A stretch of 64,000 bases of DNA, taken from positions 102,052,001 through 102,116,000 of the forward strand of contig OX597814.1 of assembly GCA_951406725.2 (NCBI GenBank). Reading direction: 5' to 3'. The DNA comes from Octopus vulgaris. Its lineage: Eukaryota. The notes under the pieces were generated by a model. That model was given only the letters and a program-made list of their open reading frames with translations, did not search any database and was not told the DNA's origin. Within the stretch, counting starts at the first letter, position 1. The number at the start of each line of letters is the position of its first letter. A program made the position numbers and the translations under genes. Of the stretch, positions 1 through 60,534 are shown in pieces.

Positions 1-2240
1 ATATACATATTCATTATTATATTTGGTTATTTCTTGAAAATATTTACTTCAGTGACTGCAAATTGTCAGACAGATTGTCCAATTGTTTGCCACTGTACCG
101 AAGACAAATTAAAACACTGTACAGTAACATGTACTGACAAAATTCTAACTCAAATACCCAGTTATTTTCCAGAAAATACGACATCATTAGATCTAAGTCG
201 AAACCACATTAAAAGAATTCCTCCTGATATTATTAGACATTTAAACTTATTAGAGGTGCTAAAAGTTGACGATAATCTCCTTGAATATTTACTGCCAAAC
301 ACCTTTCAAGGTTTGTGGTCTTTGAGAGAACTGTCATTGGAATACAACAGACTAATTATTAATTATTCGTCATTTCCTATAAATCTTTTCCGAAATTTAA
401 CTAAAGTGAAAATTCTAAAATTACGAGGTAACACTGTGCACGAAGACATAAAACTTATTGATAGAACCATATCTCATCTAACTGCATTGGAAGATTTATA
501 CATGACAGGTGGTCAGTACTTTACCTTTGGAGCAGGATATAAGAATTTGACAAAATTAAAATATATTAATTTTGCCTCAAAAAGAAACAATTCAGTTATT
601 AGATATATTACAAAACATGCATTTAAAAATGTTCCCAGAATAACCCATTTGAATTTAGATTATTGTCAAATAAATGTTATTAACACCGATGCATTCTCAC
701 ATTTCGAAGATCTGCAAGTCCTACGCATTTCATTTAACAATCAACGTCTGCTGTATAATATTGCACTGTGTTTCCGGTACCTAAAAAACCCAAGTAAATT
801 CCAAACATTATATTTTAGTAATATAAAATTAAATGTAGGAACTGGCATTGTTATTACCGAGCATTTTACAAAACCTTTACATAAAACTGGATTGAAGAAA
901 ATTGTTTTAAATTCAGATCATATTGAAATAATTTCTTGGAATAGCATTCTCTCCTTGCCCAACACATTGGAATACGCTTATTTGAGAAACAACCAATTAA
1001 CATACGGAGAATATATCTTTCAAATTAAGGCTTTACCCAACATTAAATTAATCGACATTAGCATGACATTATCGTATAGAAAGCTACCATTTATTCGTAG
1101 TAAATTATTCAATAGCGATATTACATACAGTTATGCAATCCCTAAAACTCTTAAAACATTCTTGCTACAAGGTTGCCACTATCAATTTCCGATACCACCA
1201 TTCCATATAAAAGATGCAAATGCAATAAGATTAATTAATGCAACGAATAATTTATTTTGTCCATGGAGTGGCCCAGTCCGAGGCTTAGAGCAATTACAAA
1301 TTCTGGATTTAAGTCACAACCAATGCACTAATATCAGTAAAGAATTCTTCACATATTTCACTGGTCTGCGACTTTTGAATATCGAAAATAACGCAATAGG
1401 AATTTCAGGTCAAGTTGCCAAAGAAGGTTTCAGCAAAGCTTTTCTAAATTTAACCAGCCTCGAAGAATTACATCTTTCAAATAACCACATTCAATATTTA
1501 TCAAACAACAGTTTGTTACAGCTGAAAAATCTCAGAATCTTAAATTTACACAACAATTTATTGAAATCTTTTGATGTAAAGATTAGTCATATGTTAAATT
1601 TATCATATTTAGATTTATCTAAAAACGTTTTACAGGAACTGTCGGAAAACACTTTTAATGCTATTGAAAAGATATCTGAACACCATAAATTCACTGTCAA
1701 CATCCAAAGCAATAATTTGAAATGTGGTTGTGCACAAATAAGATTTCTCACTTGGCTGCACAAAGTACGAAATTCAGGTCGTTTGAAAATAATGTACTCG
1801 AAATGTACTCATCCTAACGGAACAGTATGGAAGTTGAAAGGAGATCGGCTTGTTAGGATCGTAAGCTTTCTGAATCACACTTGTTCAGCCTTGATAGGGA
1901 TAATAATTGCGATAAGTTTTGGTGTTGTAATACTGATTATATTTCTAGTTGCCTCACTCATTTACCATTTTAGATGGAAGCTACAATATTTATATTACAT
2001 GATCAGAGAAAAGTATTCCTACAAACGACTCACTCCCGATGAATATATTTATGATGCATTTGTGATTTATGCCGACGAGAATCGAGATTTTGCATTAAAT
2101 TATTTGATTCCAGAATTGGAAGAAAAAGAAAACTTACGTTTGAATATTCATCATCGGGACTTCCCTGTTGGAAAATTGATAACAGAAAATATATTATCAG
2201 CAATCCAATCTAGTCGAAAATGTATTATTTTATTAAGCAG
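1..2240 (+). CDS. Toll-like receptor copy 1, exon 1 (signal peptide, LRRNT, LRRs, LRRCT, TM, N-terminal part of TIR); ATG lies 3 nt before the window
   Basis: Frame is open from position 1 (IYIFIIIFGYFLK, same as copies 2/3 after Met). Cys-rich LRRNT CPIVCHC; many LxxLxLxxN repeats; LRRCT NNLKCGC..CTHP..C; hydrophobic TM ALIGIIIAISFGVVILIIFLVASLIY; TIR box1 YDAFVIY; donor AG|GTAAGT at 2240/2241. Confidence 0.96.
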
Positions 2241-4483: not shown

Positions 4484-4724
4484 ATATTTTGTGGAAAGTA
4501 AATGGTGTATGTTTGAATATAACTTAGCTAAAATGGAATATATTCATACCGAAAGAAATATAGTAATTATTGTGGTACTGGAGCAGGTACCACACAGACA
4601 GCTGCCATTACCAATTCTTGAACAGATAAAGAATCAGAGTTACATTGAATTTCCAAAAGAAAATGAGATTGCTCAAGAAATGTTCTGGAAAAATCTAAAA
4701 CATTCTATACAGCTAAAAGATTAA
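4484..4724 (+). CDS. Toll-like receptor copy 1, exon 2 (C-terminal part of TIR)
   Basis: Acceptor TTCTCTTGCAG ends at 4483. The phase-2 join gives IILLSRYFVESKWCMFE, typical of TIR; box3-like FW (MFWKNL); stop TAA 4722-4724. Confidence 0.95.
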
Positions 4725-5840: not shown

Positions 5841-6130
5841 ACAAAGAGATCAAAGAGGGTCACGAAAGAGATCAAAGAGGGTGCCGAAAGAGATCAAAGA
5901 GGGTGCCGAAAGAGATCAAAGCACGTGCCGAAAGAGATCAAAGAGGATGCCGATTGAGATCAAAGAGGGTCCCGAAAGACATCAAAGAGGCTGCCGAAAG
6001 AGATCAAAGAGACACCCGAAAGAGATCAAAGAGGCTGCCGAAAGAGATCAAACAGGAGTCCCAAAAGAGATCAAAGAGGAGTCCCAAAAGAGATCAAAGA
6101 TGCTGCCGAAAGAGATCAAAGAGGAGTCCC
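5841..6130. repeat. 22-23-bp minisatellite, consensus ~GCCGAAAGAGATCAAAGAGGGT, block A (also 30102-30323 and 57228-57646)
   Basis: Tandem units read directly; block length differs per copy (~290, ~220, ~420 bp). Confidence 0.95.
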
Positions 6131-12175: not shown

Positions 12176-12179
12176 TTTT

Positions 12180-18243: not shown

Positions 18244-20913
18244 TTATTATTATTGTTCAGTCAGATAAAACTAGGAATCTCTATAAATTGGATGTTAAAT
18301 TATAAGATAACATTTTAGAGAAAGAAATAATTAAAAAATATAAAATTGTTCCAGATAGTATACTTTATTATATTAATAAGGCCTCTAAATTAGTAATGAT
18401 AAACTATGAATTGGATAATGAAACTGAACCTTATGTACCTATGCACCCTAGAATTACTCTGAAAGACCAGAAAGATAATTTTTATTCAGACCCTAAAGCT
18501 AGATTAATTTTTCCATGTAAATCTGACCTTGGTAAATTGAGTAAACTTATTTTAGATAAATATATTAATAAATTAAATAAACTTAATTACTTAAAATTAT
18601 GGTTTAGTAATAATCATACTTTAAATTGGTTTAATAATATTAAAGATTAAAATCGATATAAATTTATTCAAATACATATAGATAATTGCTATTCTTGTAT
18701 TAATGTAATTGTGTTTAATAAGGCCCTTATTTTTGCAATGAATAAAGTGGGAATGACTTTTGAAGAGGTTAACATAATTAAAATGGCTAGGAAATCGTTT
18801 ATAAAATATAAAAATAAATAATGGGCTAGGAAAGATACTAGCGAATTTTTTATATACCTATGGGAGCACCTGATTCTGCACAAGCTACGGATTTAGTAGG
18901 TATTTATCTTTTATCTGAACTCCAATTACAAAATTTAAAAATAGAGGGTGGTTTATATAGGGATGACCTTCTACTAATTACTAAGAATTGCACTAATAGG
19001 AACCTAGACGTATATAAGAAAAAACTTTATAGTTTCTTCTTTAAAAGATATGGTTTAAGTATTACTATATATAATGAGAATTTTAATGTTAATTATTTAG
19101 ATGCTAATTTTAATCTAATTACGAGTAAACCACAACCATATCATAAACTTAATGAGAACCTTAGATATATAAATGTTAATAGTAATCACCCACCATCAAT
19201 TAAAAAATCGTTGATTAATAATATAAGTAAACGTATAACATTACATTCTTATGATTTAGAGATTTTTAATAAACATGCTCCTTATTACAATGAGGCCCTT
19301 AGAGAGGCAGGTTATAATAGTAATATTAAATTTTTTTATTAAAAATAAAGATAAAACTTTTAATAATAGTGATAAAAATATTAATAATAATTATAATAAT
19401 TTTGTTAGTAATATTGGTAATAATCTTAGAAATTATAAAAATAAAAATAATATAAATAAAAATAAGAATAAAAATAAAAATAATAACTTTAATAATTCTT
19501 TAAATGTTAATTATAAATTTAAATCTAATAATAATAATAATAATATGATAAAGAAATATAATACTAATAATGGTAACAATAATAATGACAGTTTTAATAA
19601 TAATAATAAGAAAAATAAGAATAAAATTTGGTTAATAGTTCCTTATGGTGCTCAAGTTGATAAGAACATGGTTAAAGAGATTTTAGATATTATTAAACTA
19701 TTTATTCGAGATAATCGTAAATATAAAAACATATTCTCTAGTAATAATTTTGGAGAAGGTTATTCTACCACTAATAGTGTAAGTAACATTATTTCTTCTT
19801 TTAACAAATTTGAGCTGAATAATTTTTATAAAAATAAATTATATAATAATACCAATAATAAAAAAGATAATACACTAATTAACTGTACATGTAGAGATAA
19901 AACTAAATGCAACGTAAATAATAAATGTGATATTAACGATGTAGTGTATAAATGTATAGTTACATTACATGATGAGAATAATAAAAATAATAATAACTCA
20001 AACGCGATATATATAGGGTATACTTCCTCTAAAATAAAATTAAGAATCGCACAGCATATGCATTCATTTAAAAATAAAAACTTAATTAACTCCACTGGAC
20101 TTAGCAAGTACATTTGGGGACTGAAATCCCAAAATATTAATTATGATTTATCTTAGGAAATAATTAGTAAGGCTAAATCATATAGTATAGGAGGAGAACT
20201 TTTGTTATTTATGTTCAAATTAGTTTCAGGAAATTTTATTTTATAAGCATGATAATTTAGTAAATACCTGGGATGAGCGCAAAATAAGATGCAGAGATAA
20301 GTTACTTTACTTATATAATAAATTTCTTGATAAATAATGAATATTTCTTAGCCTTAATTAGCTCAGTATTTGTTGATTTATGTAATAGTATTCTAAATAT
20401 AGCAGGTGATTTGTAGTACTTATTATATTAGTTTATTTTAGTTATTTAGGTTCCGTTTTTAATTATAATTAGATTATATATAGTTTTTTATTTTATTACT
20501 AAATATCTTATTACTAAATATATTTTTTAATAAATATTTAATGGTTTATTGAATATAGAGTTTGGTAAGTTACAATTTTATTTATCTTATATTAAAGTCA
20601 AGTTTATATATTTTGTTATATTTCTGTTATAATTTTGTTAAATTATAATTTTGTTATATTAATCTATTTGTATGTAATCTCTTTATATTTGAAATAGATT
20701 TATTTAGTTGTTTATTTAATCTATTTTATTTAATATAGAAGTATAGATTAGTAAGATTAAATATTTAGATTAAACTTAATGTTTACCTCAATTTTTGTAT
20801 TGTAGTATGTCCATGTATGTATGTGTGTGCATATGTGTATGTGTGTATATGTGTGTATATATGTGTATATATGTATATGTATGTATGTGTGTATGTATGT
20901 GTATATATATATG

Positions 20914-24172: not shown

Positions 24173-26415
24173 ATGATATACATATTCATTATTATATTTG
24201 GTTATTTCTTGAAAATATTTACTTCAGTGACTGTAAATTGTCAGACAGATTGTCCAATTGTTTGCCACTGTACCGAAGACAAATTAAAACACTGTACAGT
24301 AACATGTACTGACAAAAATCTAACTCAAATATCCAGTTATTTTCCAGAAAATACGACATCATTAGATCTAAGTCGAAACCACATTAAAAGAATTCCTCCT
24401 GGTATTATTAGACATTTAAACTTATTAGAGGTGCTAAAAGTTGATGATAATCTTCTTGAATATTTACTGCCAAACACCTTTCAAGGTTTGTGGACCTTGA
24501 GAGAACTGTCATTGGAATACAACAAACTAACTATTAATTATTCGTCATTTCCTATAAATCTTTTCCGAAATTTAACTAAAGTGAAAATTCTAAAATTACG
24601 AGGTAACACTGTGCACAAAAACACAAAATTTATTGATAGAACTATATCTCATCTAACTGCACTGGAAGATTTATACATGTCAGGTGGTCAGTACTTTATC
24701 TTTGGAGCAGGATATAAGAATTTGACAAAATTAAAATATATTAATTTTGCCTCAAAAAGGAACAATTCAGTTATCAGATATATTACAAAATATGCATTTA
24801 AAAATGTTCCCAAAATAACCCATTTGAATTTAGATTATTGCCATATAGATGTTATTAACACCGATGCATTCTCACATTTTGAACATTTGCAAGTCCTACG
24901 CATTTCATTTAACCATCAAATTCTGCTGTATAGGATTGCACTGAGTTTCCGGTATCTAAAAAACCCAAGTAAATTCCAAACATTATATTTTAGTAATATA
25001 AAATTAAATGTAGGAACTGGCATTATTATTGACGAGCATTTTACAAAGCCTTTACATAAATCTGGATTGAAGAAGATTGTTTTAAATTCAGATCATATTG
25101 AAATAATTTCTTGGAATAGCATTCTCTCCTTGCCCAACACTTTGGAATACGCTTATTTGAGAAACAACCAATTAACATACGGAGAATATATCTTTCAAAT
25201 TAAGGCTTTACCCAACATTAAATTAATCGACATTAGCATGACATTATCATATAGAAAGCTACCATTTATTCGAAGTGAATTATTCAATAGCGATATTATA
25301 TACAGTTATGCAATCCCTAAATCTCTTAAAACATTCTTACTACAAGGTTGCCACTATCAATTTCCGATACCACCATTCCATATAAAAGATGCAAATGCAA
25401 TAAGATTAATTAATGCAACGAATAATTTATTTTGTCCATGGAGTGGCCCAGTCCGAGGCTTAGAGCAATTACAAATTCTGGATTTAAGTCACAACCAATG
25501 CAATAATATCAGCAACGAATTCTTCACATATTTCACTGGTCTGCGACTTTTGAATATCGAAAATAACGCAATAGGAATTTCAGGTCAAGTTGCCGAAGAA
25601 GGTTTCAGCAAAGTTTTTCTAAATTTAACCAGCCTCGAAGAATTACATCTTTCAAATAACCACATTCAATATTTATCAAACAACAGTTTGTTACAGCTGA
25701 AAAATCTCAGAATCTTAAATTTACGCAACAATTTATTGGAATCTTTTGATGTAAAGATTAGTCATATGTTAAATTTATCATATTTAGATTTATCTAAAAA
25801 CATTTTACAGGAACTGTCGGAAAACACTTTTAATGCTATTGAAAAGATATCTGAACACCATAAATTCACTGTTAACATCCAAAGCAATAATTTGAAATGT
25901 GGTTGTGCACAAATAAGATTTCTCACTTGGCTGCACAAAGTACGGAATTCAGGTCGTTTGAAAATAATGTACTCGAAATGTACTCATCCTAACGGAACAG
26001 TATGGAAGTTGGAAGGAGATCGGCTTGTTAGGATCGTAAGCTTTCTGAATCACACTTGTTCAGCCTTGATAGGGATAATAATTGCGATAAGTTTTGGTGT
26101 TGTAATACTGATTATATTTCTAGTTGCCTCACTCATTTACCATTTTAGATGGAAGCTACAATATTTATATTACATGATCAGAGAAAAGTATTCCTACAAA
26201 CGACTCACTCCCGATGAATATATTTACGATGCATTTGTGATTTATGCCGACGAAAATCGAGATTTTGCATTAAATTATTTGATTCCAGAATTGGAAGAAA
26301 AAGAAAACTTACGTTTGAATATTCATCATCGGGACTTCCCTGTTGGAAAATTGATATCAGAAAATATATTATCAGCAATCCAATCTAGTCGAAAATGTAT
26401 TATTTTATTAAGCAG
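24173..26415 (+). CDS. Toll-like receptor copy 2, exon 1
   Basis: ATG 24173 (MIYIFIIIFGY); same domain order and length (2243 nt) as the other copies; donor AG|GTAAGA at 26415/26416. Confidence 0.96.
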
Positions 26416-28719: not shown

Positions 28720-28960
28720 ATATTTTGTGGAAAGTAAATGGTGTATGTTTGAATATAACTTAGCTAAAATGGAATATATTCATACCGAAAGAAATATAGT
28801 AATTATTGTGGTACTGGAGCAGGTACCACACAGACAGCTGCCATTACCAATTCTTGAACAGATAAAGAATCAGAGTTACATTGAATTTCCAAACGAAAAT
28901 GAGATTGCCCAAGAAATGTTCTGGAAAAATCTAAAACATTCTATACAGCTAAAAGATTAA
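28720..28960 (+). CDS. Toll-like receptor copy 2, exon 2 (TIR C-terminal part)
   Basis: Acceptor CTCTTGCAG ends at 28719; 241 nt to TAA; in frame with exon 1. Confidence 0.95.
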
Positions 28961-29495: not shown

Positions 29496-32400
29496 TGTGT
29501 GTGTGCGCGCGTGTGTGTGTGTCAGTTAAAAATAGCGACATAAAATAATCGTTGCTTTGATGCATTTGTCCTTGATTTTTCAACTGACTGGAAATGATCT
29601 TCTGCACCAAACCGTAAATTTGTCGAACTGACTGATATATTATAATAACGACCCAATAACCAGAGATGTGACAAAAAGCCTTGCGGGCAAAGGAGAAGTT
29701 ATCTATTTACAACAGGAGCCGTGTTTGTAACGAATAATAATTAGCATATTCAATCAAAATTCGGTATGATGTTTAGAACGCCTTGAATTTCATGACACGT
29801 ACAAATTAAGGACGGACTATATCGGCTGACCGAATGAGAGTCTGCAGCGGTGGATGGCATTATCATATTACGTGATTTCACTGTTGATTGCGGATCATCA
29901 GTGATACCCAAACTATTCTCTATATAAGTGTAGATTAAAATATATTCAGTGACATACTTAACGTGTTTAGCAAACCCTTTACAATAGTTATTGTCACTGT
30001 ACGAGTTCCCAATGACAAGCGGGGAGAGGGCGGAAAGGAAGGTAAATAAATGCCTTCGAAGACAACAGGCCTGTACATAAGATCCTTCCTGTACTTACTG
30101 TACAAAGAGATCAAAGAGGGTCACGAAAGAGATCAAAGAGGGTGCCGAAAGAGATCAAAGAGGGTGCCGAAAGAGATCAAAGAGGGTGCCGTAAGAAATC
30201 AAAGAAGGTGCCAAAAGAGATCAAAGCGCGTGCCGAAAGAGATCAAAGAGGATGCCGATTGAGATCAAAGAGAGTCCCGAAAGAGATCAAAGATGCTGCC
30301 GAAAGAGATCAAAGAGGAGTCCCGTGTCGTGTAAGCGGTTGTGGCTACTATGATGTGCAGGTTACTTGATACAGGAAATTCTCGCAGGTTAAGCTTGCTT
30401 TTAACCATGGTGACGTATTCACAAACAGCCTGAAGATAAACCACAGCGAAGTTGCTGTGTATGTAGAGATTTTGTTGTCGTTAAGATGAAGGCAACCGAG
30501 ATGGAGGCAACGTTAAGATAAAGGCGACGGAGGTGGAGGTCCGGAAATACTTCTGGTAGTGTTTGTCGCTGAACTGGCTGTCACTGGAACTGGCTGTGTC
30601 ACTCTGTGGTCAGTGGTCTAGAACCAAAGACGCTCGCCTCGATGAATTGCTGTGTTTTATAGTAAATGATAGGCTCAAACGGAGCTTTAGAAAAACTGTG
30701 TCACAGGACCTTATCATAAGGCTGCGATTGATTGGATTGCACATTGGCGCGTAATACAGCAAGAGACAAACTGCGCCAATACCAATCAATTAGAGTAGTG
30801 GATGCAACAGGGTCCAAACGGCCGAGGTTAGCTGTTATCTGCTACGTTCGTAGGGTGCCGAAAGAGATCAAAAAGGGTCCCGAAAGAGGTCAAAGCGGGT
30901 CCCGAAAGAGATCAAAGAGGGTGCCGAAAGAGATCAAACAGGGTCCCGAAAGACATCAAAGAGGGTCCCGAACGAGATCAAAGAGGGTGCCGAATGAGAT
31001 CAAAGAGGAGTCCCGAAAGAGATCCCGAAAGATTGCGTTTCCCTCAGGAAACAGTTCCGCAGCCATAGGATGAATTTGATCAGATAAAATGCTTAATTAG
31101 ACTTGATTATAAATTCTGCCATGAAGGGCCAGCGGATTTCCAAGATATAGCCCCCCAAGATCATCACAGATTCTCCACTATGTTGGAAGAAGGTAGCCTG
31201 GGTCACATGCATCTTTTGGTTGTGTCTACACGTATACTCGGCCGGTGGTTGGAAATAAGGTAAAGGATGACTCATCCAAGAAAATAACATTCTTCCACTG
31301 CTCTAGGGGCCATTTCTGTAGGTATTTACTCCACTCTAAACGCTTTGTGCAGCTCCCGGCGAACAGTTTTTGTGGAAATTGAGTTCTCGAGGTGGTCATT
31401 AAGCTCTGCAGTAATTTTGGGAGCTGAACTTTTGTGATCTTTTCTAGCAATTCGCGTAGGGGTCCGACGGCCCCTATCTGTAAGTTTTGGATTGACACCT
31501 ATTATTTTCTTCTGCCACCCTAAATTGTAGTAGGTTTTAGGTATGCATATTTTCCTTAAATTCATTCTGCCAAAAACACAGCAAATTGAAACAATGCAAT
31601 TATTTTAGTCTCTTGTACTGATTAAATTTTGCTAAAAAATAATGGTTTATCCTTAATGTTGGAAATCTATACGGTGGTCTGCTTTTGAGAAGAGCGGTTT
31701 AATTCAAACTGAAATAACGTTTTCATTGATCGATTAAATAGAGCCTTTCTCTTTTCTAGCACCATCCCTTTGTCTTAAACCCGATGTAACTTGATCCATC
31801 CTTGTCCTTCCATTCACATTCCCAATATTTTTTTTTATCAACAGTTCTTTGCCTATATTTACAAATGTTTGCAATTCTTATAGAAAGATAATAGTGACTG
31901 AAATTTGTAGCAATTTTTCATTCCCTAACCAGACGGGCATATATGAACAAGACAGCCAAAACTCAGGAGACACAACTTTATGTATGGATGTACCTGATGA
32001 AACCTAGACTGCAAAATGGATGTATCACATGCTGATCGGAGTCCCACCCACAAAGGACATTAGAAGGATGGGCCTCAGCAACCCGTTATTCAGCAGCAAA
32101 TACCGCCTGCTTTCGTTTCGCCATCTCGTCTCATTTCACCCAACCCTACCGTAGTAAAACGGGATTCACTACAACAGACTACTACCATTACGACAGGTCA
32201 AAATCCGCTTCAACAACAACAGTCTAATATTACTACTACTACATCAGTGATATTGAATAACGATTTTCCCTCTAAGCCACATGCCAATATAGAAAACCCT
32301 CCTCCACTTCAAAAAACCTGCCGTTATCCGTTTCAAGGTATTTCTTAATTTGGCCCCAGCAGCACCACCAACAAGGGACACTACCCTTTCTCTCATACTC

Positions 32401-34913: not shown

Positions 34914-37900
34914 ATCTTTCTTTTCTGACAGTCTGTCCGTATGTATGTATGTATGTATGTATGTATGTATGTATGTATGTATGTATGTATGTATGTATGT
35001 ATGTATGTATGTATGTATGTATGAATGTAGGCTTGTGTGTATGTAAGACTCTTCCGTACTTAATTATTTAGATTCTTCCTCTGAAAAATGTTGATAACGA
35101 AAACAATGTCACATATTAAACCTGAGAAATGTCTTAGTGTTCCGCTTATAGACTGCATTTGCAATGTGGAAATACGTTGGTTGATTGCGTTTTCTAAAAC
35201 ACCAAGCTTATCCAGACTTACAGTTAGTTATTGGTATAAATATAAATTTGCATTCCGGATATAGAAGCTGGAAGTTTCGAAGCAGTTTTCCGTAGTTAGC
35301 TTCTTTGTCTTTCATTTTCAAAGAGATATTCACATCAGCAGGACAGCTAGTCTCTATGACGGAACATACTTTTTCTTGTCTGTTCCAAACAACAATATCC
35401 GGCATGTTATGCTTGCAATTGACAGATGTTTTGACGGGTATGTTCCGCCAGTATTCCTTATGTTGATATTTGTGTACGTATTCAATAACAGAGGGATTCT
35501 CTACATTTGTTCCAGGACAATCTTGTTTTTCAAATGGCATTTTTAGCAACATTCTTATGTTTCATAGAGAGGCTGTGCCTTGGTGATATTTTTTGGACAG
35601 CCGCTAATCACATGTGTGGTGTCTTGCACAAAAATATAACATTATTTACATTTAAGCTGATTCTTGGAACTCCAAAGGCCTCACTGTCTCTTTTGTTGAT
35701 GAAGTATTTAGTAGTGATCTCCTGTTCTTGGATTGTAAATGAAGAGCCTTTGAAGTGGGATGTGATGTAGCAGTCACTAGTTCAAGAGAGATTTCGCTTC
35801 ATGTCAATGTTCCTATCTTCTTCAAGTAAACGAGAAACATACCCATACATAGTCGTTTTTCTTGGTATGCTGAGCATTTCACCTCCAGGGTTTCTTTGAG
35901 CTATGTTAGTCCAGCTGATTTGGGGTTGCATGGGAGGTCATTAGGACTAGGAACTCACTTCCAACACGTAGGATATTGTTTTCTTCACTTTTCAGCATTT
36001 AGTTAATGTATATATTTTTGTTGCAGTTGTTGTTTAACAAGTGCTGTCTGAGACATTTAAAGGCTCTCTACACTGAGCTAAAGCCTCTACTTCCTTTGTC
36101 TCTTCTTATGTAGAACTTGTCGATATCACTATTTTTGTTTTGTTAAGATTTCCAAATGAGGTTAGATTCTTGAGGGTTAAAATGTCTATGGAGTGGATTT
36201 CTACTTCAGACCAGTCGATTATCTCGAATGTTGGAAACAGTACAGGTACTGCTAATGCGCTGTGAGATATTGTCTTGTTCTAAAAGGAGAATTCAGACTA
36301 CCATATTTGTTTTAATCTGGTTTAATATTCTTGGATAACGCACATTTTCATCAATGCCAAGGTACAAGTGGCATTTTGTGGCAGACGAGATTGAGGATTT
36401 TTATACAACTCTTCGTTCAACCATTGAGCAAGTACCATACTTTTCTAGTTATTGCTGGTTATCTGAATGCTAAACTAGGACCCGATAAGACCAAGTTTAC
36501 TCTCAACTCTAAAACTAATCGGAACGGGGAAATGCTCAAAGACTTTTTAGAGGAATTTAATCTTTACGCCTCCAACAATTATTTTATGAAACCAAAAGGA
36601 CAACTTTGGACATTCGAGTATCCATCTGGTGACAGGGCACAAATTGACTACCTCATTTTTCGAAAGAAGTGGCGAAATAGTGTCAAAGACTCGAGATCCT
36701 ACTCTTCCTTTAGTTCTTTTGGTTCCGACCACAAAATTGTATCAGCTACCGTTAAGCTTATTCTTCGCTCATCCAAAAAAGCTAAGCCTCATCATATAAA
36801 AACGATCGACTGGAAGGAAGTCTCGTCTAACCCCGATATGTCCAAGCAATTTACTATTGAGGTCTATAACAAATTTCAATCTTTGTCTACTTCTGAAATA
36901 GATGGTGAGAACATTGAAGAAGTTTACAGTAGCCTCATCAAATCAACAGAGGAAGTTGCACTGGCTACTCTACCCAAAAAGTAGAGAAGAGACCAGAGCA
37001 GGCCTTCAAATTCTCCAAATGTCATCGAAGCCAGAAACCATCTAAAGTCTATATCACTAGCTTACCACCGTTCTCCATCCCAGTCACTGAAGATCCAACT
37101 CATAACTGCCAAGAAGAATCTTGATGATGTTTACTTGAACGCCGAAGTCGACTCTATTAACGGCAAAATTAGCAAACTATCCAAAGAGCACATTAGTAAA
37201 AAACACAGTCTTGCCTGGAAATCTATCAAAGACCTATCAGGCAAAAATTCTGGGTCATCAATTAGAATCAAAGCGGGATCAGCTAAGAAGCGTTTAGAAA
37301 ATTGGTCAATTCATTTTTAAAACCTTCTTGGAAAGAATGCCACAATCCCCGATAACCCCACTCTTCCAAGTGTGCCTATATCAGATACGCTGGACATCAA
37401 CACCTTCCCTTTTACCATATTTGAACTAACAGCAGCCACTAAACAACTGAAAGCCTCGAAAACTTTTGGTCCCGACAACATCCCAGCTATAATTTGGAAG
37501 GATGATAGATTTCACGTACTTTTGCTAAATCTTTGCAAACACACACTTTCCACTTTTATAGCTCCAAAGATTTGGCACCAATCTCAAATCATCCTAATAC
37601 CCAAAAAAGGCGATTTATCCCTCGTCACCAACTACAGGGGTTTATCTCTAATGTCAATTGATGCAAAATTGTACAACAAACTGATTCTAAACCGTCTCGT
37701 CCCTTTTGTTGAACCTTTGCTCCGAAAGAATCAAAATAGATTCAGACATGGGCGCTCAACGTTGAGCCAAATACTATGCCTACGCAGACTCATTGAAGAA
37801 TCAAAAGCATTTAATCGCGATCTTGCAATGGTGTTTGTAGACTTTTCTAAAGCGTTCGACTCTGTAGATAGGTACAAGATGTTTGAAATCCTTAAGCTCT

Positions 37901-39269
37901 ATGGGATTCCAGACAAAATCATTTCTGCCATCAAGGTCCTCTACACAGATACGTCTTCAACCATCTTAACCCATGATGGGGAAACATCATCTTTCTCAAT
38001 CTGCAAGGAGACACACTCGTCCCATTTCTCTTGTCGTTGACTATGTGCTACGTATGTCAGTTGATACCATTTCTTGTAAGGGCTTTGAAATAAAACCTAG
38101 AAGAAGTTCCAGACACCCAGCTGAACACTGAACGGACACTGACTTTGCTGACGACATCGATCTTATCAGTGATTCTCTCTCCAATGCCCAGTCTCTTTTA
38201 CAATCTCTTAAATAAGCATCAAATTGTGTATGTCTTTACCTCAATGAGTCCAAGACTGAATATGTAAACAAGTGCCTGTCCAACAGTGATTTCATCATCC
38301 ATACTCTCAACAATACCCTCTTAAATATGGTTTCTGATTACAAATATCTTGGGTCATACATATCATCATCTGAAAAAGATTTTCTAACTAGAAAGTGTAT
38401 GGCCTGGTCAGCCTGTAATGATATGCATAAGATCTGATCATCAAATCTAAGTAGGGATTTCAAACTTAAAATCTTCAAAGCCACAGTCGAACCAATTCTA
38501 CTATATGGCTCAGAAGCCTGGGCGTAATCAAAGAAGCTTGAGAGGCGGTTGGATAGAACTTACACTCGCCTCCTTATGAGAGCTCAAAATCTCTCGTGGA
38601 AGTACAAATATATGAGAAATTACCACTTGTATCATCTCTTGTGAAAGGTAGAAGAGTTCAGTTTGCTGGACATTGTTGTAGAGCTGAAAACGAGGTAATT
38701 TCTACTCTTCTCCTCTGGAAGCCATCTGCTTGCGATACCAGAGGGCGCACACTCTCATACCCTGATGTAATCTCCAGGGATACAGGCATCCAGCACCGGG
38801 ACCTCCGTAATGCTATGATTGACCGTGAAGTCAGGTGTACCATAGTAAATTCCATTGTCTCGACCACGGTCGAACAATGATGATGATGAAAACAACTATT
38901 TTGGCATTCGTTCATCCGCCATTTGAACAATATGCCCACATCATCTTATTTGGTTCCTCAAAATCATAGCTTTAATTGGGGTGGTGCCTGCATATGCAAG
39001 GACATCTGTGTTTGGAGTAAAAGAAATCTATTTAATGTTTAAAATGCGATGAAGGCATTTTAGTTACAATTATTCTAACAATTTAAAATGTCTTTCATAA
39101 CAAGACCATATTCCACAAGGATACAGCAGGGATGGTAAGACAAATGATTTGTAAAGAGCCAGCTTTTTATTCTTATTAATATGTCGCAGGCACCAAACGC
39201 GTGACTCCAAGCCACGAAATGCTCTTGCTGCCCTTTGAATTCGTTTTGAATTTCAGTCTAGTTAGATTT

Positions 39270-40408
39270 TTAAAATTCACTGTTGTTCGATATTTTATGT
39301 AAATACCCTCCTCAGAGTTTTGAAAAGCATGTGACAACACAACGGCAAATGATATTGCAAAGAGAGTGGGTGGATCAAGGTCTCCTTGCTTTACTCCATT
39401 TTCCACGGCAAAAGGTCCAGAGAGCCTACCACCAAAGTTAATTCTAGCTTTCATATCTTGATGCAAGGCCCTGATCATGTTTACAAATTTGTCTGGACAA
39501 CCTAATTTCCTTAGAATTAGCTACAGAGCATTTCAATTAACAGTATCGAATGCTTAAAATTCACTGTTGTTCGATATTTTATGTAAATACCCTCCTCAGA
39601 GTTTTGAATAGCATGTGACAACACAACGGCAAATGATATTGCAAAGAGAGTGGGTGGATCAAGGTCTCCTTGCTTTACTCCATTTCCCACGGCAAAAGGT
39701 CCAGAGAGCCTACCACCAAAGTTAATTCTAGCTTTCATATCTTGATGCAAGGCCCTGATCATGTTTACAAATTTGTCTGGACAACCTAATTTCCTTAGAA
39801 TTAGCTACAGAGCATTTCAATTAACAGTATCGAATGCTTAAAATTCACTGTTGTTCGATATTTTATGTAAATACCCTCCTCAGAGTTTTGAATAGCATGT
39901 GACAACACAACGGCAAATGATATTGCAAAGAGAGTGGGTGGATCAAGGTCTCCTTGCTTTACTCCATTTTCCACGGCAAAAGGTCCAGAGAGCCTAACCA
40001 CCAAAGTTAATTCTAGCTTTCATATCTTGATGCAAGGCCCTGATCATGTTTACAAATTTGTCTGGACAACCTAATTTCCTTAGAATTAGCTACAGAGCAT
40101 TTCAATTAACAGTATCGAATGCTTAAAATTCACTGTTGTTCGATATTTTATGTAAATACCCTCCTCAGAGTTTTGAATAGCATGTGACAACACAACGGCA
40201 AATGATATTGCAAAGAGAGTGGGTGGATCAAGGTCTCCTTGCTTTACTCCATTTTCCACGACAAAAGGTCCAGAGAGCCTACCACCAAAGTTAATTCTAG
40301 CTTTCATATCTTGATGCAAGGCCCTGATCATGTTTACAAATTTGTCTGGACAACCTAATTTCCTTAGAATTAGCTACAGAGCATTTCAATTAACAGTATC
40401 GAATGCTT
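39270..40408. repeat. 4x tandem repeat of a 284-bp RTE RT fragment
   Basis: TAAAATTCACTG starts at 39271, 39555, 39839 and 40124; single copy at ~15100-15385 in the other unit. Confidence 0.95.
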
Positions 40409-51308: not shown

Positions 51309-53551
51309 ATGATATACATATTCATTATTATATTTGGTTATTTCTTGAAAATATTTACTTCAGTGACTGCAAATTGTCAGACAGATTGTCCAATTGTTTG
51401 CCACTGTACCGAAGACAAATTAAAACACTGTACAGTAACATGTACTGACAAAATTCTAACTCAAATACCCAGTTATTTTCCAGAAAATACGACATCATTA
51501 GATCTAAGTCGAAACCACATTAAAAGAATTCCTCCTGATATTATTAGACATTTAAACTTATTAGAGGTGCTAAAAGTTGACGATAATCTTCTTGAATATT
51601 TACTGCCAAACACCTTTCAAGGTTTGTGGTCTTTGAGAGAACTGTCATTGGAATACAACAAACTAACTATTAATTATTCGTCATTTCCTATAAATCTTTT
51701 CCGAAATTTAACTAAAGTGAAAATTCTAAAATTACGAGGTAACATTGTGCACAAAAACACAAAACTTATTGATAGAACTATATCTCATCTAACTGCACTG
51801 GAAGATTTATACATGACAGGTGGTCAGTACTTTATCTTTGGAGCAGGATATAAGAATTTGACAAAATTAAAATATATTAATTTTGCCTCAAAAAGAAACA
51901 GTTCAGTTATGATATATATTGTAAAATATGCATTTAGAACTGTTCCCAGAATAACCCATTTGAATTTAGATTACTGCCACTTACACAGATTAAACGGCTA
52001 CACATTAGCATTTTTCGAAAATCTGCACCTCCTACGCATTTCATTTAACAATCAAAAGCTGCTGGAGGAAATTCCACGGACCTTGGAACGTCTGAAATTC
52101 CCAAGCCAATTGCAAATATTATATTTTAGTAATATGAAATTAAATGTAGGAACTGGCAATGTTATTACCGAACGTTTTACAAAATCTTTACATAAATCTG
52201 GATTGAAGAAGATTGTTTTAAATTCAGATCATATTGAATCAATTTCTTGGAATAGCATTCCCTCCTTGCCCAACACATTGGAATACGCTTATTTGAGAAA
52301 CAACCAATTAACATACGGAGAATATATCTTTCAAATTAAGGCTTTACCCAACATTAAATTAATCGACATTAGCATGACATTATCATGTAGAAAGCTACCA
52401 TTTATTCGTAGTAAATTATTCAATAGCGATATTACATACAGTTATGCAATCCCTAAATCTCTTAAAACATTCTTACTACAAGGTTGCCACTATCAATTTC
52501 CGATACCACCATTCCATATAAAAGATGCAAATGCAATACGATTAATTAATGCAACGAATAATTTATTTTGTCCATGGAGTGGCACAGTCCGAGGCTTAGA
52601 ACAATTACAAATTCTGGATTTAAGTCACAACCAATGCAATAATATCAGTAACGAATTCTTCACATATTTCACTGGTCTGCGACTTTTGAATATCGAAAAT
52701 AACGCAATAGGAATTTCAGGTCAAGTTGCCAAAGAAGGTTTCAGCAAAGCTTTTCTAAATTTAACCAGCCTCGAAGAATTACATCTTTCAAATAACCACA
52801 TTCAATATTTATCAAACAACAGTTTGTTACAGCTGAAAAATCTCAGAATCTTAAATTTACACAACAATTTATTGAAATCCTTTGATGTAAAGATTAGTCA
52901 TATGTTAAATTTATCATATTTAGATTTATCTAAAAACGTTTTACAGGAACTGTCGGAAAACACTTTTAATGCTATTGAAAAGATATCTGAACACCATAAA
53001 TTCACTGTTAACATACAAAGCAATAATTTGAAATGTGGTTGTGCACAAATAAGATTTCTCACTTGGCTGCACAAAGTACGGAATTCAGGTCGTTTGAAAA
53101 TAATGTACTCGAAATGTACTCATCCTAACGGAACAGTATGGAAGTTGAAAGGAGATCGGCTTGTTAGGATCGTAAGCTTTCTGAATCACACTTGTTCAGC
53201 CTTGATAGGGATAATAATTGCGATAAGTTTTGGTGTTGTAATACTGATTATATTTCTAGTTGCCTCACTCATTTACCATTTTAGATGGAAGCTACGATAT
53301 TTATATTACATGATCCGAGAAAATTATTCCTACAAACGACTCACTCCCGATGAATATATTTACGATGCATTTGTGATTTATGCCGACGAAAATCGAGATT
53401 TTGCATTAAATTATTTGATTCCAGAATTGGAAGAAAAAGAAAACTTACGTTTGAATATTCATCATCGGGACTTCCCTGTTGGAAAATTGATATCAGAAAA
53501 TATATTATCAGCAATCCAATCTAGTCGAAAATGTATTATTTTATTAAGCAG
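51309..53551 (+). CDS. Toll-like receptor copy 3, exon 1 (divergent central LRRs)
   Basis: ATG 51309; intact LRR-TM-TIR; donor AG|GTAAGT at 53551/53552. Confidence 0.96.
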
Positions 53552-54464
53552 GTAAGTAACCCCCATTAAAATTATAGCATCCACACGAACACACACACAC
53601 ACACACACACACACATATCTTCCTAATTTTCAAAGTACGATGGGTTGCTGAAAAATTCCTGGTTTTAAGGGTACCACGAAAGGCTTGGTTGGAGGCCTAA
53701 TCTTCCGAGTTCTTTTACAGAGCTTAGAAAAACTGAAGGATCGCAGCAATAAGTGTGTGAATCTGAGGGGAGAATATGTTGAATAAAATGATGCTTAACT
53801 CATCCACTTGTATTTTCTTTTAACCACAGCCAGGAACTTTTCAGCAGCCCCTCGTTCAAAGCAATTATTAGCATTATTTGTATTATTAACACATATCACA
53901 TTCAACACATGTTTTGAGTACTAACTATAATATATATTCCTTTCTTTAGCATAATTAATTTGACATAAAACAAAAGAATTTAATGCATGGTTTAACTAAC
54001 TCGGTAATAATTAGAAACATTAACATCACTTAACATTTCCGTGGGTCCGTGTTTAAAAAAAGTTTTGGATCAAGAAGGATATGTAGAGGGATTAAAAGTG
54101 TAAAAGAGTAGCAGTTGTGTAAGGGTGAGTGTGAGTTACGAAAATGTCTGCTACGTCAAACTGTACTATCTACCTCATGTTCAATATACTCCATAATATT
54201 AAAAAGTATATATTATATATATACGTAGATGTGCGTACATGTATGTATGCATGTATGTATGTCATTATTCAGCGTATTTCAAGATTTCTTGCCTATAGAG
54301 AAAGAACCGGCTTCTAACCTAGATGCTTCATTGGAATTTCAAAGTCGACAACAAGGTATTTTTGATTGTATGTATGTATGCATGTATATATGAATGTATG
54401 TATGTATGTATGTATGTATGTATGTATGTATGTATGTATGTATGTATGTATGCATGTATGTATG

Positions 54465-54498
<34 letters not shown>

Positions 54499-55868
54499 CG
54501 TACGTACGTATGTATGCACGCATGCATATATGTATGTGTGTGTATGTATGTATTATGTATGTATGTTTGTATGTATGTATGTATGTATGTATGTATGTAT
54601 GTATGTATGTATGTATGTATGCATGTATGTATGCATGTATGTATGCACAGCTTTGTTTCATGCATGTATTCTCATGCATAATGAGAAACTGCTGAAAAGT
54701 TTTACACATTTCTATAGTTCCAGTGAGAGATTGGATCTGTAGTCTTCAAATTAGCATATATGTACGTACGTATGTATGCATGCATGCATATATGTATGTG
54801 TTTATGTATGTATGTATGTATGTATGTATGTATGTATGTATGTATGTATGTATGTATGTATGTATGTATGTATGTATGTATGTATGTATGTATATATGTA
54901 TGTATGTATGTATGTATGTTAATGCCAAGAGATACTTTAGGCAATAAACTCCGATATCCAACAACTAACATTATGTCCACTAATTTAAGTATTCCTGGTT
55001 TCAGATAAAAATAATAAAGTTTATACAAGTATTAAACTATTAGTGACATCTAACTTGGGTAGAATAGTTTTCTCTGACGCTTCTACTGTAAAGGGATAAT
55101 CTATTTGTTCAACATGATTTTGGCAGAATTCACTCAAATAGATTACTCTTGCATTGGTGTCATTTGAAATTGCTTAGGATATTCACTCTCGTATTACGCT
55201 ACAATACAACATGTCCTGTATCTAATATTGCCAAAATATCTGGACAGCTTAACATTCTTAAGCTGTAATTATGATATAAAACTTGTCTTTGAAGTCCTTA
55301 GTTGCTCTTTAACAGATTCCGAAATGCCACCAATATCGTAGGTTGATTCAGAATTTTGTTTTCTCCTGATTTCCGGCAGTTTCTACTAGTCATCATCTTT
55401 TACTAACGTGAAAATTGCAATTAATAGACTGTTTCCACAACACATTTTACATTTACAGTATGGAGTAACGGTCACCTACCAGGTTTCAATGGGAGTGGAA
55501 GTTAAAAAATTCAAGAATATGTCGAAATATTACATCTGAATATTTTCTATTGAACAATTGTTAAGAGTCTCTAAAACTTCGCACCTCATAGGAACTGGAA
55601 CAGTTCAAATTTAGGCATATATCTTTATGCGAACGGAATTACAAAATCTACTGCACAATAAAGTGCAGCAAGTTGAGTCGTAGAAGTTTAACAAAAATAT
55701 TTCTACATAATCAGCACACCGAGTACATCTGATAATATAAAATAATACTTGGGAAAATGAACATTAGGAAACTACAAATAGCAATATTTATTAGAAGTCC
55801 ATTTGAAGAATTAAGAGACTATTTCAATACAGAATTGTTCATTGATATTCTATTATGTTCTCTTGCAG

Positions 55869-56109
55869 ATATTTTGTGGAAAGTAAATGGTGTATGTTTG
55901 AATATAACTTAGCTAAAATGGAATATATTCATACCGAAAGAAATATAGTAATTATTGTGGTACTGGAGCAGGTACCACACAGACAGCTGCCATTACCAAT
56001 TCTTGAACAGATAAAGAATCAGAGTTACATTGAATTTCCAAAAGAAAATGAGATTGCTCAAGAAATGTTCTGGAAAAATCTAAAACATTCTATACAGCTA
56101 AAAGATTAA
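55869..56109 (+). CDS. Toll-like receptor copy 3, exon 2 (TIR C-terminal part)
   Basis: Acceptor TCTTGCAG ends at 55868; 241 nt to TAA; peptide identical to copy 1. Confidence 0.95.
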
Positions 56110-56649: not shown

Positions 56650-58773
56650 AGTTAAAAATAGCGACATAAAATAATCGTTGCTTTGATGCATTTGTCCTTG
56701 ATTTTTCAACTGACTGGAAATGATCTTCTGCACCAAAACGTAAATTTGTCGAACTGACTGATATATTATAATAATGACCCAATAACCAGAGATGTGACAA
56801 AAAGCCTTGCGGGCAAAGGAGAAGTTATCTATTTACAACAGGAGCCGTGTTTGCAACGAATAATAATTAGCATATCCAATCTAAATTCGGTATGATGTTT
56901 AGAACGCCTTGAATTTCATGAAACGTACCAAGTAAGGACGGACTATATCGGCTGACCGAATGAGAGTCTGCAGCGGTGGATGGCATTATCATATTACGTG
57001 ATTTCACTGTTGATTGCGGATCATCAGTTATACCCAAACTCTTCTCTATATAAGTGTAGATTAAAATATATTCAGTGACATACTTAACGTGTTTAGCAAA
57101 CCCTTTACAATAGTTATTGTCACTGTACGAGTTCCCAGTGACAAGCGGGGAAAGGGCGGAAAGGAAGGTAAATAAATGCCTTCGAAGACAACAGGCCTGT
57201 ACATAAGATCCTTACACTACTTACTGTACAAAGAGATCAAAGAGGGTCACGAAAGTGATCAAAGAGGGTGCCGAAAGAGATCAAAGAGGGTGCCGAAAGA
57301 GACCAAAGAGGGTGCCGAGAGAGATCAAAGAAGGTGCCGAAAGATATCAAAGAGGATGCCGAAAGAGATCAAAGAGTTTCCCGAAAGAGACCAAAAAGGC
57401 TGCTGAAAGAGATCAAAGAGGCTGCCGAAAGAGATCAAAGAGGGTGCCAAGGGAGATGAAAGAAGGTGCCGAAAGATATCGAAGAGGATGCTGAAAGAGA
57501 TCAAAGAGTTCCCGAAAGAGACCAAAGAGGCTGCTGAAAGAGATCAAAGAGGCTGCCGAAAGAGATCAAAGCAGCTGCCGAAAGAGATCAAAGAGGAGTC
57601 CCGAAAGAGATCAAAGAGGTTGCCGAAAGAGATCAAAGAGGAGTCCCGTGTTGTGTAAGCGGGTGTGGCTACAATGATGTGCCGGTTACTTGATACAGGA
57701 AATTCTCGCAGGTTGAGCTTGCTGTTAACCATGGTGACGTATTCACAAACAGCGTGAAGTTAAACCACAGCGAAGTTGCTGTGTATGTAGAGATGTTGGC
57801 GTCGTTAAGATGGAGACAACGGAGATGGAGGCAACGTTAAGATAAAGGCGACGAAGGTGGAGCTCCGGAAATACTGCTGGTAGTGTGTGTCGCTGAACTG
57901 GCTGTCACTTGAACTGGCTGTGTCATTCTGTGGTCAGTGGTCTAGAACCAAAGACGCTCGCCTTGATGAATCGTGTTTTATAGCAAATTATAGGCTCAAA
58001 CGGAGCGTAAGAAAAACTGTGTCACAGGACCTTATCATAAGGCTGCGATTGGTTGTATTGCACATTGGCGCGTAATACAGCAAGAGACAAACTGCGCCAA
58101 TACCAATCAATTAGAGTAGTGGATGCAACAGGGTCCAAACGGCCGAAGGTTAGCTGTTATCTGCTACGTCTGTATTTATGTTATATATATAACAGAGAGA
58201 GAGAGAGAGAGAGAGAGAGAATTTCACCAAACGCCCGCTACAGTTGCATAAATCCGTAAGTAAAAATAAAAATGGATAGAATTATAGATAAATTTATGTA
58301 TATTTTTCAATGCATATATAAATATAAATACGTTCAAGTATTTATACATAAAGAAATACATAAAAATATCTGAAAAATAAAAATAAATGGACACTTCTAT
58401 TATCACATCTTGCACATATACCTACATATATTTACACGCTCGTACATAACAAATACATGTAAATATCTGTATAGAAACGCATGCAAAAAATTGTATGAAT
58501 ATATATTTGTGCAAGTAATATATTTCTACTTAGTTTCATACACAAAAATTTATTTATGTCTAAATATGCTTCAATGAAAATAAAAATACCAAAGCAGTAG
58601 TGAATAAATGCATAAATAAAAATGTATCTATTATTCGTAATTACTTTAATAAAAAAAACTGACACCCCTCAATCTATTCTGCAGTAATCAAGTAAGTTAA
58701 AGAGTGTCTATTGGTCATTTTTAAAAATAAGTAGCGTTTCGTTTATTAACGGTAATGTAATACGTAATAAAAA

Positions 58774-59003: not shown

Positions 59004-59082
59004 GGTAATGTAATATGTAATAAGTAAATAAAAGCGGGGTTGCTATGTTATGTGTATAAATAAGACAGCAAGGAAAAATTTC

Positions 59083-59812
59083 GGATCTTTTCCTTTTAAA
59101 CAGCACATGTCAACACAATTTCTAGTTAACTAAACACTTCAAAACTTCTTATACTGGTAGAATGTGTCAAAATAAAGCATTTTTTTCTCTTGGCTTTCTT
59201 GAGAAAATTGTAATTTGTTTGTTTAACGTAGTTTAATTTTTCGAATTTTAACCAATGAATCGCCTCTAGTGAGCTAAAATCATTTGCTGCGTCTAAAACT
59301 GAGACAACATCCTGTCACTAACACTAACCCTCACCCTAACCCTAACCCTAATTTTTTTTTTCTTAATTGTTAAATTAATTTAATTATTACACATGTCAAA
59401 AAAAACGAAAGTCTAAAACGAAAGCAATGGAAAATAATTTAAACAATTAACAAACAAAATAATTCTATAAATTTATACACACGCTTTCCGTATACGTACA
59501 CGCGTAACAATTAAATTAATTTAACAATTAAGAAAAAAAAAATTTAGGGTTAGGGTTACGGTGAGGGTTAGGGTTAGTGACAGGATGTTGTCTCAGTTTT
59601 AGACGCAGCAAATGATTTTAGCTCACTAGAGGCGATTCATTGGTTAAAATTCGAAAAATTAAACTACGTTAAACAAACATATTACAATTTTCTCAAGAAA
59701 GCCAAGAGAAAAAAAGGTTTTATTTTGACACATTCTACCAGTATACGAAGTTTTAAAGTATTTAGTTAACTAGAAATTGTGTTGACATGTGCCGTTCAAA
59801 AGGAAAAGATCC
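59083..59812. mobile_element. Palindromic non-autonomous DNA transposon, ~310-bp TIRs, 8-bp TSD
   Basis: Arms 59083-~59392 and ~59500-59812 are reverse complements starting GGATCTTTTCC; TSD AAAATTTC at 59075-59082 and 59813-59820. Confidence 0.92.
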
Positions 59813-60534
59813 AAAATTTCTTATATCAAAGAAAATAATTTATAGTTATTTTAAAAAATTAAGGGATAAAATGCTCATGTGTGCAATTTATAATATAATA
59901 AATAAATAAAGGAAGAAAGAAACAGAATAAAAGAAGAGAGTTAATATGTAATGTGCGTAAATAAGAGAGCAAGGAAAAATACGGAAGAAAAATGTTCTTT
60001 ATATATTTTTAGTTTTGACGATAACATGCTTGTGTATGCAAAAATATACTGGTTAAGGGGAGGTAAATATGGATAGTTAATTTATCTAGGGAATAATAGA
60101 AAATATACAGGAAAATTATTATAGATAAAAATATGTTTTGTTTTTAATATATAAAGGTTTGAAAAATAAATATATTAGTTTAATGAATAAATAAAGATAG
60201 CTGGGTGAATAATATAAGGTAAAATAATACACTGCGAGGAGGGCAAATATTCCTAGCTATCTATTAAATTAGTCTAGAATAGGGGAAATATTTACAAATT
60301 AGTATTAATTGTATTAATAATAAGTAATGGGGTAATATAAATTAGCAATATTTAATTAAATTAATAGTTACTACTATTAAGGAATTAAGTAAGAAAATAG
60401 GGAAATATATATAAGAGAGATATAATGTTTCAGTATAGGTATAAAAGTATTATTCAAAGTAATTTTTTAAAATGGTGATTTTTAGAAAATAAAGGTAAAT
60501 ATAAAACTATAATTAAAATATCAAAGTAGGGGAT

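Follow-up and report, generated by a model that had tools for sequence, protein, structure and literature searches.

A copy-specific island in a tandem octopus Toll-like receptor array, probably old and likely kept by selection while its surroundings are homogenized

Introduction

Three closely similar Toll-like receptor (TLR) genes stand in tandem in the DNA analyzed here, a 64-kb stretch from Octopus vulgaris that we call the window. The third copy departs sharply from the other two over about 100 codons of its leucine-rich repeats (LRRs) and hardly at all elsewhere. How did such a patch arise, and what keeps it distinct? An earlier note on this DNA had proposed focused diversification of a ligand-binding surface, by positive selection or by segmental exchange with a diverged paralog. 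We compared the three copies with one another, with proteins of other octopods, and with contigs from independent sequencing runs. The reading that we prefer, at a probability of about 0.7, is that the patch is an old copy-specific island, which selection likely maintains as the rest of the gene is overwritten, in all likelihood by gene conversion or unequal crossing-over.

Results

The window carries three copies of a two-exon TLR gene

Three same-strand copies of a two-exon TLR gene lie in repeated units 24–27 kb apart. Below, type A denotes the patch sequence of copies 1 and 2, and type B that of copy 3.

1..2240, + strand: exon 1 of TLR copy 1, start codon cut off by the window edge
586–888, + strand: type-A patch of copy 1
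4484–4724, + strand: exon 2 of copy 1
24173..26415, + strand: exon 1 of TLR copy 2
24761–25063, + strand: type-A patch of copy 2
28720–28960, + strand: exon 2 of copy 2
51309..53551, + strand: exon 1 of TLR copy 3 (open reading frame, Pfam matches, GT donor after 53551)
53199..53276, + strand: transmembrane helix of copy 3, residues 631–656 (hydrophobic run read by eye from the translation)
53552..55868, + strand: intron of copy 3, within the TIR domain
55869..56109, + strand: exon 2 of copy 3, with the remaining TIR and the stop (AG acceptor, open frame)

Exon 1 of copy 3 encodes a signal-like N-terminus, an LRRNT, about 20 LRRs, an LRRCT, a transmembrane helix, and the first part of a TIR domain. 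Pfam LRR_8 scored 118 bits, and the exon 1 part of TIR scored 27.6 bits against a cut-off of 21.3, with exon 2 completing the domain; LRRNT (E = 6e-4) fell under its curated cut-off. Four cysteines (C576, C578, C603, and C629) are almost invariant in a 77-row alignment and make up one juxtamembrane cysteine cap. With an LRR ectodomain, one such cap, one transmembrane helix, and a TIR domain, the predicted proteins have the layout of a TLR of the single cysteine cluster type. A contig of sequencing run X17 joins 53551 straight to the letters of copy 3 exon 2. This spliced contig shows that X17 is RNA, the only one of the runs compared by contigs for which this is proven. The gene, which we call class I, is transcribed and spliced.

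The exon 1 sequences are of equal length and align without gaps. Exon 2 of copy 2 differs from that of the other copies by two bases and one residue. Introns differ at 24–32 of ~1640 unmasked bases (1.5–2.0%) across the copies; that of copy 3 differs from those of copies 1 and 2 at 24 and 28 of 1647 bases, or 1.5–1.7% outside simple repeats.

The nearest proteins come from Octopus bimaculoides (83–85% identical), followed by O. vulgaris, O. sinensis, and Argonauta. Among the O. bimaculoides records, A0A0L8HND6 / XP_014770878.1 is of type B and XP_052821681.1 / A0A0L8FMR8 of type A; their models are partial or fused, and they bear the automatic names "toll-like receptor 4" or "LRRNT domain-containing protein." The former name is no evidence for TLR4 orthology or lipopolysaccharide (LPS) binding. 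No class I protein of type A or B from O. vulgaris or O. sinensis was found among proteins of near length, and none of 35 candidate shorter homologs of the patch passed.

Several features of the surrounding DNA were also recorded. Whole units, introns and retroelements included, are ~98% alike. A broken LINE-like element was duplicated with the unit (12147–14700 and 36316–38040, with Pfam RVT_1 at 13152–13868), and further retroelement-like reading-frame pieces at 15432–16199 (− strand) and 18842–20156 have no Pfam match. A 284-base unit that is single in unit 1 (15101–15386) forms four near-perfect tandem copies at 39270–40408, either a recent local expansion or an assembly stutter. A 22-base minisatellite lies 3' of exon 2 in each unit, at 5843–6124, 30104–30317, and 57230–57641, with 12.7, 9.7, and 18.7 copies, respectively. 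Copy 3 sits at the end of the repeated array, where homology to the other units stops near 58169. Past this end, an inverted repeat (59076–59819) with arms of ~320 bases that are 95% alike is possibly a small DNA transposon.

Differences between the copies concentrate in one patch of exon 1

The patch and its parts are as follows.

51897..52199, + strand: patch of copy 3, residues 197–297, from the LRR6 loop to the end of LRR9
51900..51941, + strand: 5' shoulder, with five replacements private to the copy-3 lineage (residues 201–211)
51987..52100, + strand: type-B core, residues 227–264 (loop and convex segment of LRR7, helix on the convex side of LRR8), with 15 of the 16 type-diagnostic residues
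52107..52199, + strand: 3' shoulder (LRR9), with four more replacements private to copy 3 and the single type-diagnostic residue outside the core (289)

Between copies 1 and 3, 39 of the 101 patch residues differ, as the earlier note had counted, and the gap-free alignment bears out its remark that neither indels nor stops interrupt the patch. The two peptide pairs that it quoted are correct as written. It had also described the transmembrane and TIR parts as almost constant and exon 2 as identical; we found three residue differences between copies 1 and 3 downstream of the transmembrane helix, and an exon 2 that matches that of copy 1 exactly. Outside the patch, 18 of 646 exon 1 residues differ. 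At the base level, the same two copies differ at 63/303 positions in the patch and at 33/1938 in the rest of exon 1; the best 101-codon window over 10,000 codon permutations held 36 differences. Codons with two or three base changes number 14 in the patch and one in the flanks.

Copy 2 differs from copy 3 at 40/101 patch residues, and copies 1 and 2 differ from each other at 12/101. The word "hypervariable" in the earlier note is too strong, as there are mainly two types. Copies 1 and 2 differ at 21/303 bases in the patch and at 41/1938 elsewhere in exon 1; this roughly 3-fold excess in the patch may mean that subtypes are emerging within type A. A blastn search of the 64-kb window for a donor of the patch returned only the two type-A counterparts (79–80% identity) and short chance matches. 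N-glycosylation sequons in residues 150–330 are the same in all three copies.

Both core types occur in Octopus bimaculoides

Two O. bimaculoides proteins divide along the same line: P0001 has the core of copy 3 (type B), and P0002 has that of copies 1 and 2 (type A). Across 572 columns common to these two proteins and the three window copies, 16 are type-diagnostic (15 in residues 227–264 and one at 289), and 25 are species-diagnostic, none of them within 227–289. For tree building, we took the core as residues 223–266, boundaries that were drawn after the alignment was viewed. In these 44 residues, copy 3 differs from P0001 at 11 and from copy 2 at 24, and copy 2 differs from P0002 at nine. 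The core tree joined copy 3 to P0001 with support of 100/100 and placed copies 1 and 2 with P0002; a single clade of window copies was rejected (p-AU 5e-5). The same clade was rejected for the whole patch, whose bounds the earlier note had set beforehand (p-AU 3e-4). The flank tree split by species (100/100) and rejected a pairing of copy 3 with P0001 (p-AU 4e-5). This pairing in the core was also starred in an 11-row tree.

Types A and B lie together on one contig in the window, and both O. bimaculoides proteins are recorded from one 199.9-Mb contig. The cross-species evidence comes from one other species with both types, represented by proteins only. We infer from these sequences that the types split before the two octopus lineages separated, an event reportedly ~34 million years old (10.1101/2023.05.16.540928). 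Over residues 197–297, the branch to copy 3 is long (0.29 versus 0.04 for P0001), and retention alone therefore does not explain it. Convergence of the copy 3 and P0001 cores was considered and rejected, since the two proteins have the same residue at 11 of the 16 type-diagnostic positions and dS is raised.

Silent divergence is raised in the patch

Pairwise codon models of copies 1 and 2, each against copy 3, gave a patch dS of 0.21 and 0.27 and a dN of 0.28 and 0.29; with three sequences and hence low power, patch omega was 1.32 (95% interval 0.64–2.97; p = 0.47) against copy 1 and 1.08 (0.54–2.29; p = 0.83) against copy 2. A dN above dS, as the positive selection of the earlier note would have it, finds no support, both values being indistinguishable from 1. 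In the core (residues 223–266), dS reached 0.41–0.52, and in the flanks it was 0.02–0.03; patch dS exceeds that of the flanks by 7- to 12-fold. A model in which the patch has a high omega but the same dS as the flanks was rejected (p = 1e-4 and 2e-7). Because dS is high in the patch and core and low in the flanks, and the intron is nearly identical, the patch is far older than the DNA around it. The flanks thus group by species, the core groups by type, and dS is raised in the island only, a pattern that, as far as these alignments go, points to an island shielded from conversion. The earlier note had set exactly this case, old divergence shielded from conversion with dS raised too, against its own reading, and it is what the cross-species trees brought out.

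Omega was significantly above 1 in none of the regions tested (patch, core, shoulders, and flanks), and selection is accordingly read from the persistence of the island and not measured. Shoulder omega was 2.2 and 1.9 (p = 0.26 and 0.32), with intervals that include 1. Patch omega exceeded flank omega for copy 1 versus copy 3 (p = 0.01) and did not differ from it for copy 2 versus copy 3 (p = 0.34). Within residues 197–297, at positions where the other four proteins agree, copy 3 has 10 private replacements and P0001 has one (p = 0.012), and nine of the 10 fall on the shoulders. Copies 1 and 2 also have more derived residues than P0002 (9:3 and 10:4), an excess that is not significant. Contigs of the copy-3 type in runs X6 and X10 also have most of the 5' shoulder changes, but not that at residue 211. 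This copy-3-private layer may reflect selection in the copy-3 lineage or a widening of the island.

Independent contigs carry the copy-3 type

Half or more of the sampled words were present in 19 of 24 sequencing runs, and four runs (X6, X10, X14, and X17) were compared by contigs. In X6 (organism C), a contig over 51866–52106 has two differences from copy 3 in 241 bases, where copy 1 would give 54; type-A loose ends occur in the same run, which hence carries both types. In X10 (organism B), a contig over 51790–51995 has two differences from copy 3 in 206 bases, where copy 1 would give 21, and another over 52067–52238 has six, where copy 1 would give 29. That X10 is RNA is no more than a guess, and none of its contigs reaches the splice site. 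Because X6 and X10, which have two other organism codes, both contain copy-3-type contigs, the copy-3 type is not an assembly error. Across the patch, only type-A contigs appeared among the matches listed for X17 (organism A, spliced RNA; type-A depth 167) and X14 (organism E), and contigs show presence, not absence. A type-B contig of X10 has the type-A letter at 52107; the shoulders may therefore be mosaic, with alleles that differ in the right-hand boundary of the island.

Type-diagnostic residues avoid the concave face and the buried motif

An AlphaFold2 model of the ectodomain, built from the 77-row alignment (pLDDT 93.7), has strands at residues 217–219, 241–243, and 270–272 and helices at 232–235 and 251–260. 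The top Foldseek matches were vertebrate TLR ectodomains (TLR8, TLR4, TLR7, and TLR2; TM 0.3–0.5); solved structures gave generic LRR matches only, none of them aligning the patch. With the LRR register assigned by hand, the 39 differences comprise 28 at variable lateral or convex positions, five in the ascending loop, one at a strand edge, three in the buried motif (of 16 such positions), and two on the concave face. The earlier note had placed the change mostly on the lateral and convex faces of the central LRRs, and so it falls, on a near-constant backbone: 34/73 loop or convex positions differ versus 2/12 concave ones, which is no more than a trend (Fisher p = 0.06). None of the 16 type-diagnostic residues occupies any of the 28 concave or buried motif positions (p = 0.005). 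Along the convex helix of LRR8, the Y253, L257, and Y261 of type A correspond to the charged or polar E/K, R, and R/H of type B; in the LRR7 segment, the D/E and H/Q of type A correspond to two aromatic residues of type B, Y231 and F235. Ligand surfaces have been described for the TLR2 pocket at LRR9–12 and for the lateral side of TLR5 up to LRR9 (available part of PMC8181103). By analogy, the core region may set the ligand specificity of the octopus receptor.

A second octopod class shares a C-terminal block with class I

A second class of octopod TLRs (class II: P0005–P0008 and P0012–P0015) is 57–69% identical overall to class I; tblastn found no class II gene in the 64-kb window. Class II paralogs also diverge over residues 197–296, at 53/97 residues in O. 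sinensis and 48/94 in O. vulgaris, and from 297 to 748 they show 0–2 differences per 25 residues. Within 197–296, the class II variants pair across species. The two classes have the following segment in common.

52461..53144, + strand: C-terminal LRR block common to both classes, residues 385–612

Over these residues, copy 2 is identical to O. vulgaris and O. sinensis class II proteins at 219/228 positions. Columns that separate the classes number none in 385–573, 30 in 277–384, and 37 in 613–748. In block trees, from which P0003, P0004, P0005, and P0015 were omitted as duplicates or fusions, three O. bimaculoides proteins grouped together (87/93), as did two Argonauta proteins (100/100), which have 33 columns of their own. 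Because contigs from the runs branch at 52471–52500 and after 53148, which are the block edges, chimeric gene models alone do not account for the block. It is shared species by species in three octopod lineages, and the transmembrane and TIR parts are class-specific (P0005–P0009 and P0012–P0014). The class I intron lies inside the TIR domain, and a class II contig of run X17 matches across 53522–53551. Public gene models P0003, P0005, P0012, and P0015 are fused or partial, with part of a class I ectodomain or TIR attached to a class II gene; these fusions suggest that genes of the two classes alternate within one cluster and have been mis-annotated.

Discussion

How would an old island persist in an array that is otherwise turning over? 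Under the reading that we prefer, repeated conversion or unequal exchange would homogenize the array units, exchange tracts that cross the core would be selected against, and keeping both types would be favored. The core would set what the receptor binds; residue swaps in LRR7 and LRR8 would change its surface, and each type may be a co-adapted block whose hybrids work poorly. From the sequences, the likely outcome is different recognition surfaces on one common signaling module. The exchange between paralogs that the earlier note had inferred survives in this account; its donor patch moving into copy 3 probably does not, the likely course being the reverse, with an old patch and overwritten flanks. 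The island spans ~115 bases between flanks that are 98% identical, and exon 1 has no indel that could block pairing.

Divergence itself can slow conversion, and an old island that is now neutral would need nothing more than mismatch to exclude conversion tracts, with type B perhaps having the same function or being unexpressed. The near-1 omega of the patch, the position of copy 3 at the array end, and the lack of a type-B contig among the matches listed for the spliced RNA of X17, where type A reaches its depth of 167, would all suit such an island. We nevertheless judge it distinctly unlikely, given how small the core is amid highly similar, indel-free flanks, the preservation of its reading frame, buried motif, and concave strands, the island in the same region of both O. 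bimaculoides and class II, and the type-B contigs of X10, the guessed RNA run. Type B might instead belong to a balanced trans-species cassette, MHC-like or R-gene-like, whose position in the array shifts and which some individuals have and others lack. This is unlikely. It would account for type B in only two of four runs, for the type-A letter at 52107 in X10, and for the recent array turnover that the ~98% likeness of whole units implies, but both types share one contig here, as the O. bimaculoides proteins do in their assembly, and contigs drop rare variants, so that the absence of type B is not demonstrated.

Recent positive selection on copy 3 alone, the first option of the earlier note, is very improbable as the maker of the patch. 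The 10-to-1 ratio of private replacements in copy 3 and P0001, shoulder omegas of 1.9–2.2, and the higher patch than flank omega in copy 1 versus copy 3 speak for it; the core that O. bimaculoides has in common refutes it for the core, and the raised dS, the rejection of the one-dS model, the shoulder intervals that include 1, the lack of a difference between patch and flank omega in copy 2 versus copy 3, and the non-significant surplus of derived residues in copies 1 and 2 also tell against it. Recent positive selection may hold for the shoulders only. As for an assembly artefact, whether sequencing error or haplotypes of one gene placed in tandem, the units differ by ~2%, the same order as the heterozygosity of O. 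vulgaris, given as 1.22% in the available text of 10.1101/2023.05.16.540928, and two haplotypes of this kind could underlie copies 1 and 2. The patch, however, keeps its reading frame, independent contigs and an O. bimaculoides protein match it, and run X6 contains both types, which leaves this explanation exceedingly improbable.

Alongside the old island, likely kept by selection, a wider reading is a tentative possibility that we hold to be somewhat doubtful: tiered conversion might have built a modular receptor kit from a selected, interchangeable LRR6–9 cassette, a C-terminal LRR block that both classes have in common within each species, and two class-specific TIR outputs. The cassette would come in two or more types in each class, the class I pair having been common to both species over ~34 million years. 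Were this so, any two chains could dimerize, giving combinatorial heterodimer recognition; cephalopods would have arrived independently at a logic like that of TLR2/1/6, and the presence of the type-B cassette might vary between animals.

Near-identical tandem copies collapse in assemblies and can hide differences such as the two core types; of all molluscs, cephalopods are described as having the smallest set of TLRs and the least variable one (available part of PMC10279657). In the octopod TLR cluster, whole-gene trees and pairwise dN/dS mislead. The ~15 core residues are candidate specificity determinants of octopus TLRs. Among the matches listed in a search of the octopus, cephalopod, and mollusc TLR literature that covered few subscription journals, we found no report of a conversion-shielded island in a cephalopod TLR; the cephalopod case is apparently unreported, and the process itself is already known from avian TLR2A/TLR2B and from opsins.

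The comparisons that follow draw on the available parts of the cited texts. Sea urchin TLR families (Buckley and Rast 2012, PMC3367398) resemble the octopus array in their clustered ectodomain change and quiet TIR. Their selected sites lie mainly on concave beta-strands and their omega tests are positive, whereas change in the octopus spares the concave face, with omega near 1; the term "gene conversion" is absent from the part of that text available. Mammalian TLR1/TLR6 (Kruithof et al. 2007, PMC2077338) and avian TLR1A/B share with the octopods a species-wise conversion of a C-terminal block between diverged paralogs. The TLR1/TLR6 block extends from LRR14–16 through the transmembrane helix and most of the TIR, while the octopod block covers only ~LRR13 to the LRRCT (385–612); unlike TLR1/TLR6, octopod classes I and II keep the transmembrane and TIR parts class-specific.

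Exon 5 of the red and green opsins (PMC3924837) offers a parallel outside the TLRs: tandem genes ~24 kb apart, a sharp coding peak, and introns of low divergence. That pair is put at 30–40 million years old, and its peak is taken to mark where selection acts (Fawcett and Innan 2011, PMC3924837); in theory and in the opsin case, a divergence peak under gene conversion is a mark of selection (PMC3924837). The selected opsin residues have a measured function, whereas that of the octopus core is proposed by analogy, and the octopus island recurs in two gene classes. The avian TLR2A/TLR2B pair (PMC3125219) is another such case, with tandem TLRs converted at both ends, from the N-terminus to LRR8 and from LRR15 to the TIR (Huang et al. 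2011, PMC3125219), and a center that groups by orthology, a pattern also supported by PMC6107061. Compared with the avian pair, the octopus island is narrower (~LRR7–8), lies a little more N-terminally, and involves three or more copies, with the intron and downstream DNA homogenized too. The octopus island suggests that TLR evolution by conversion around a protected island is not confined to vertebrates.
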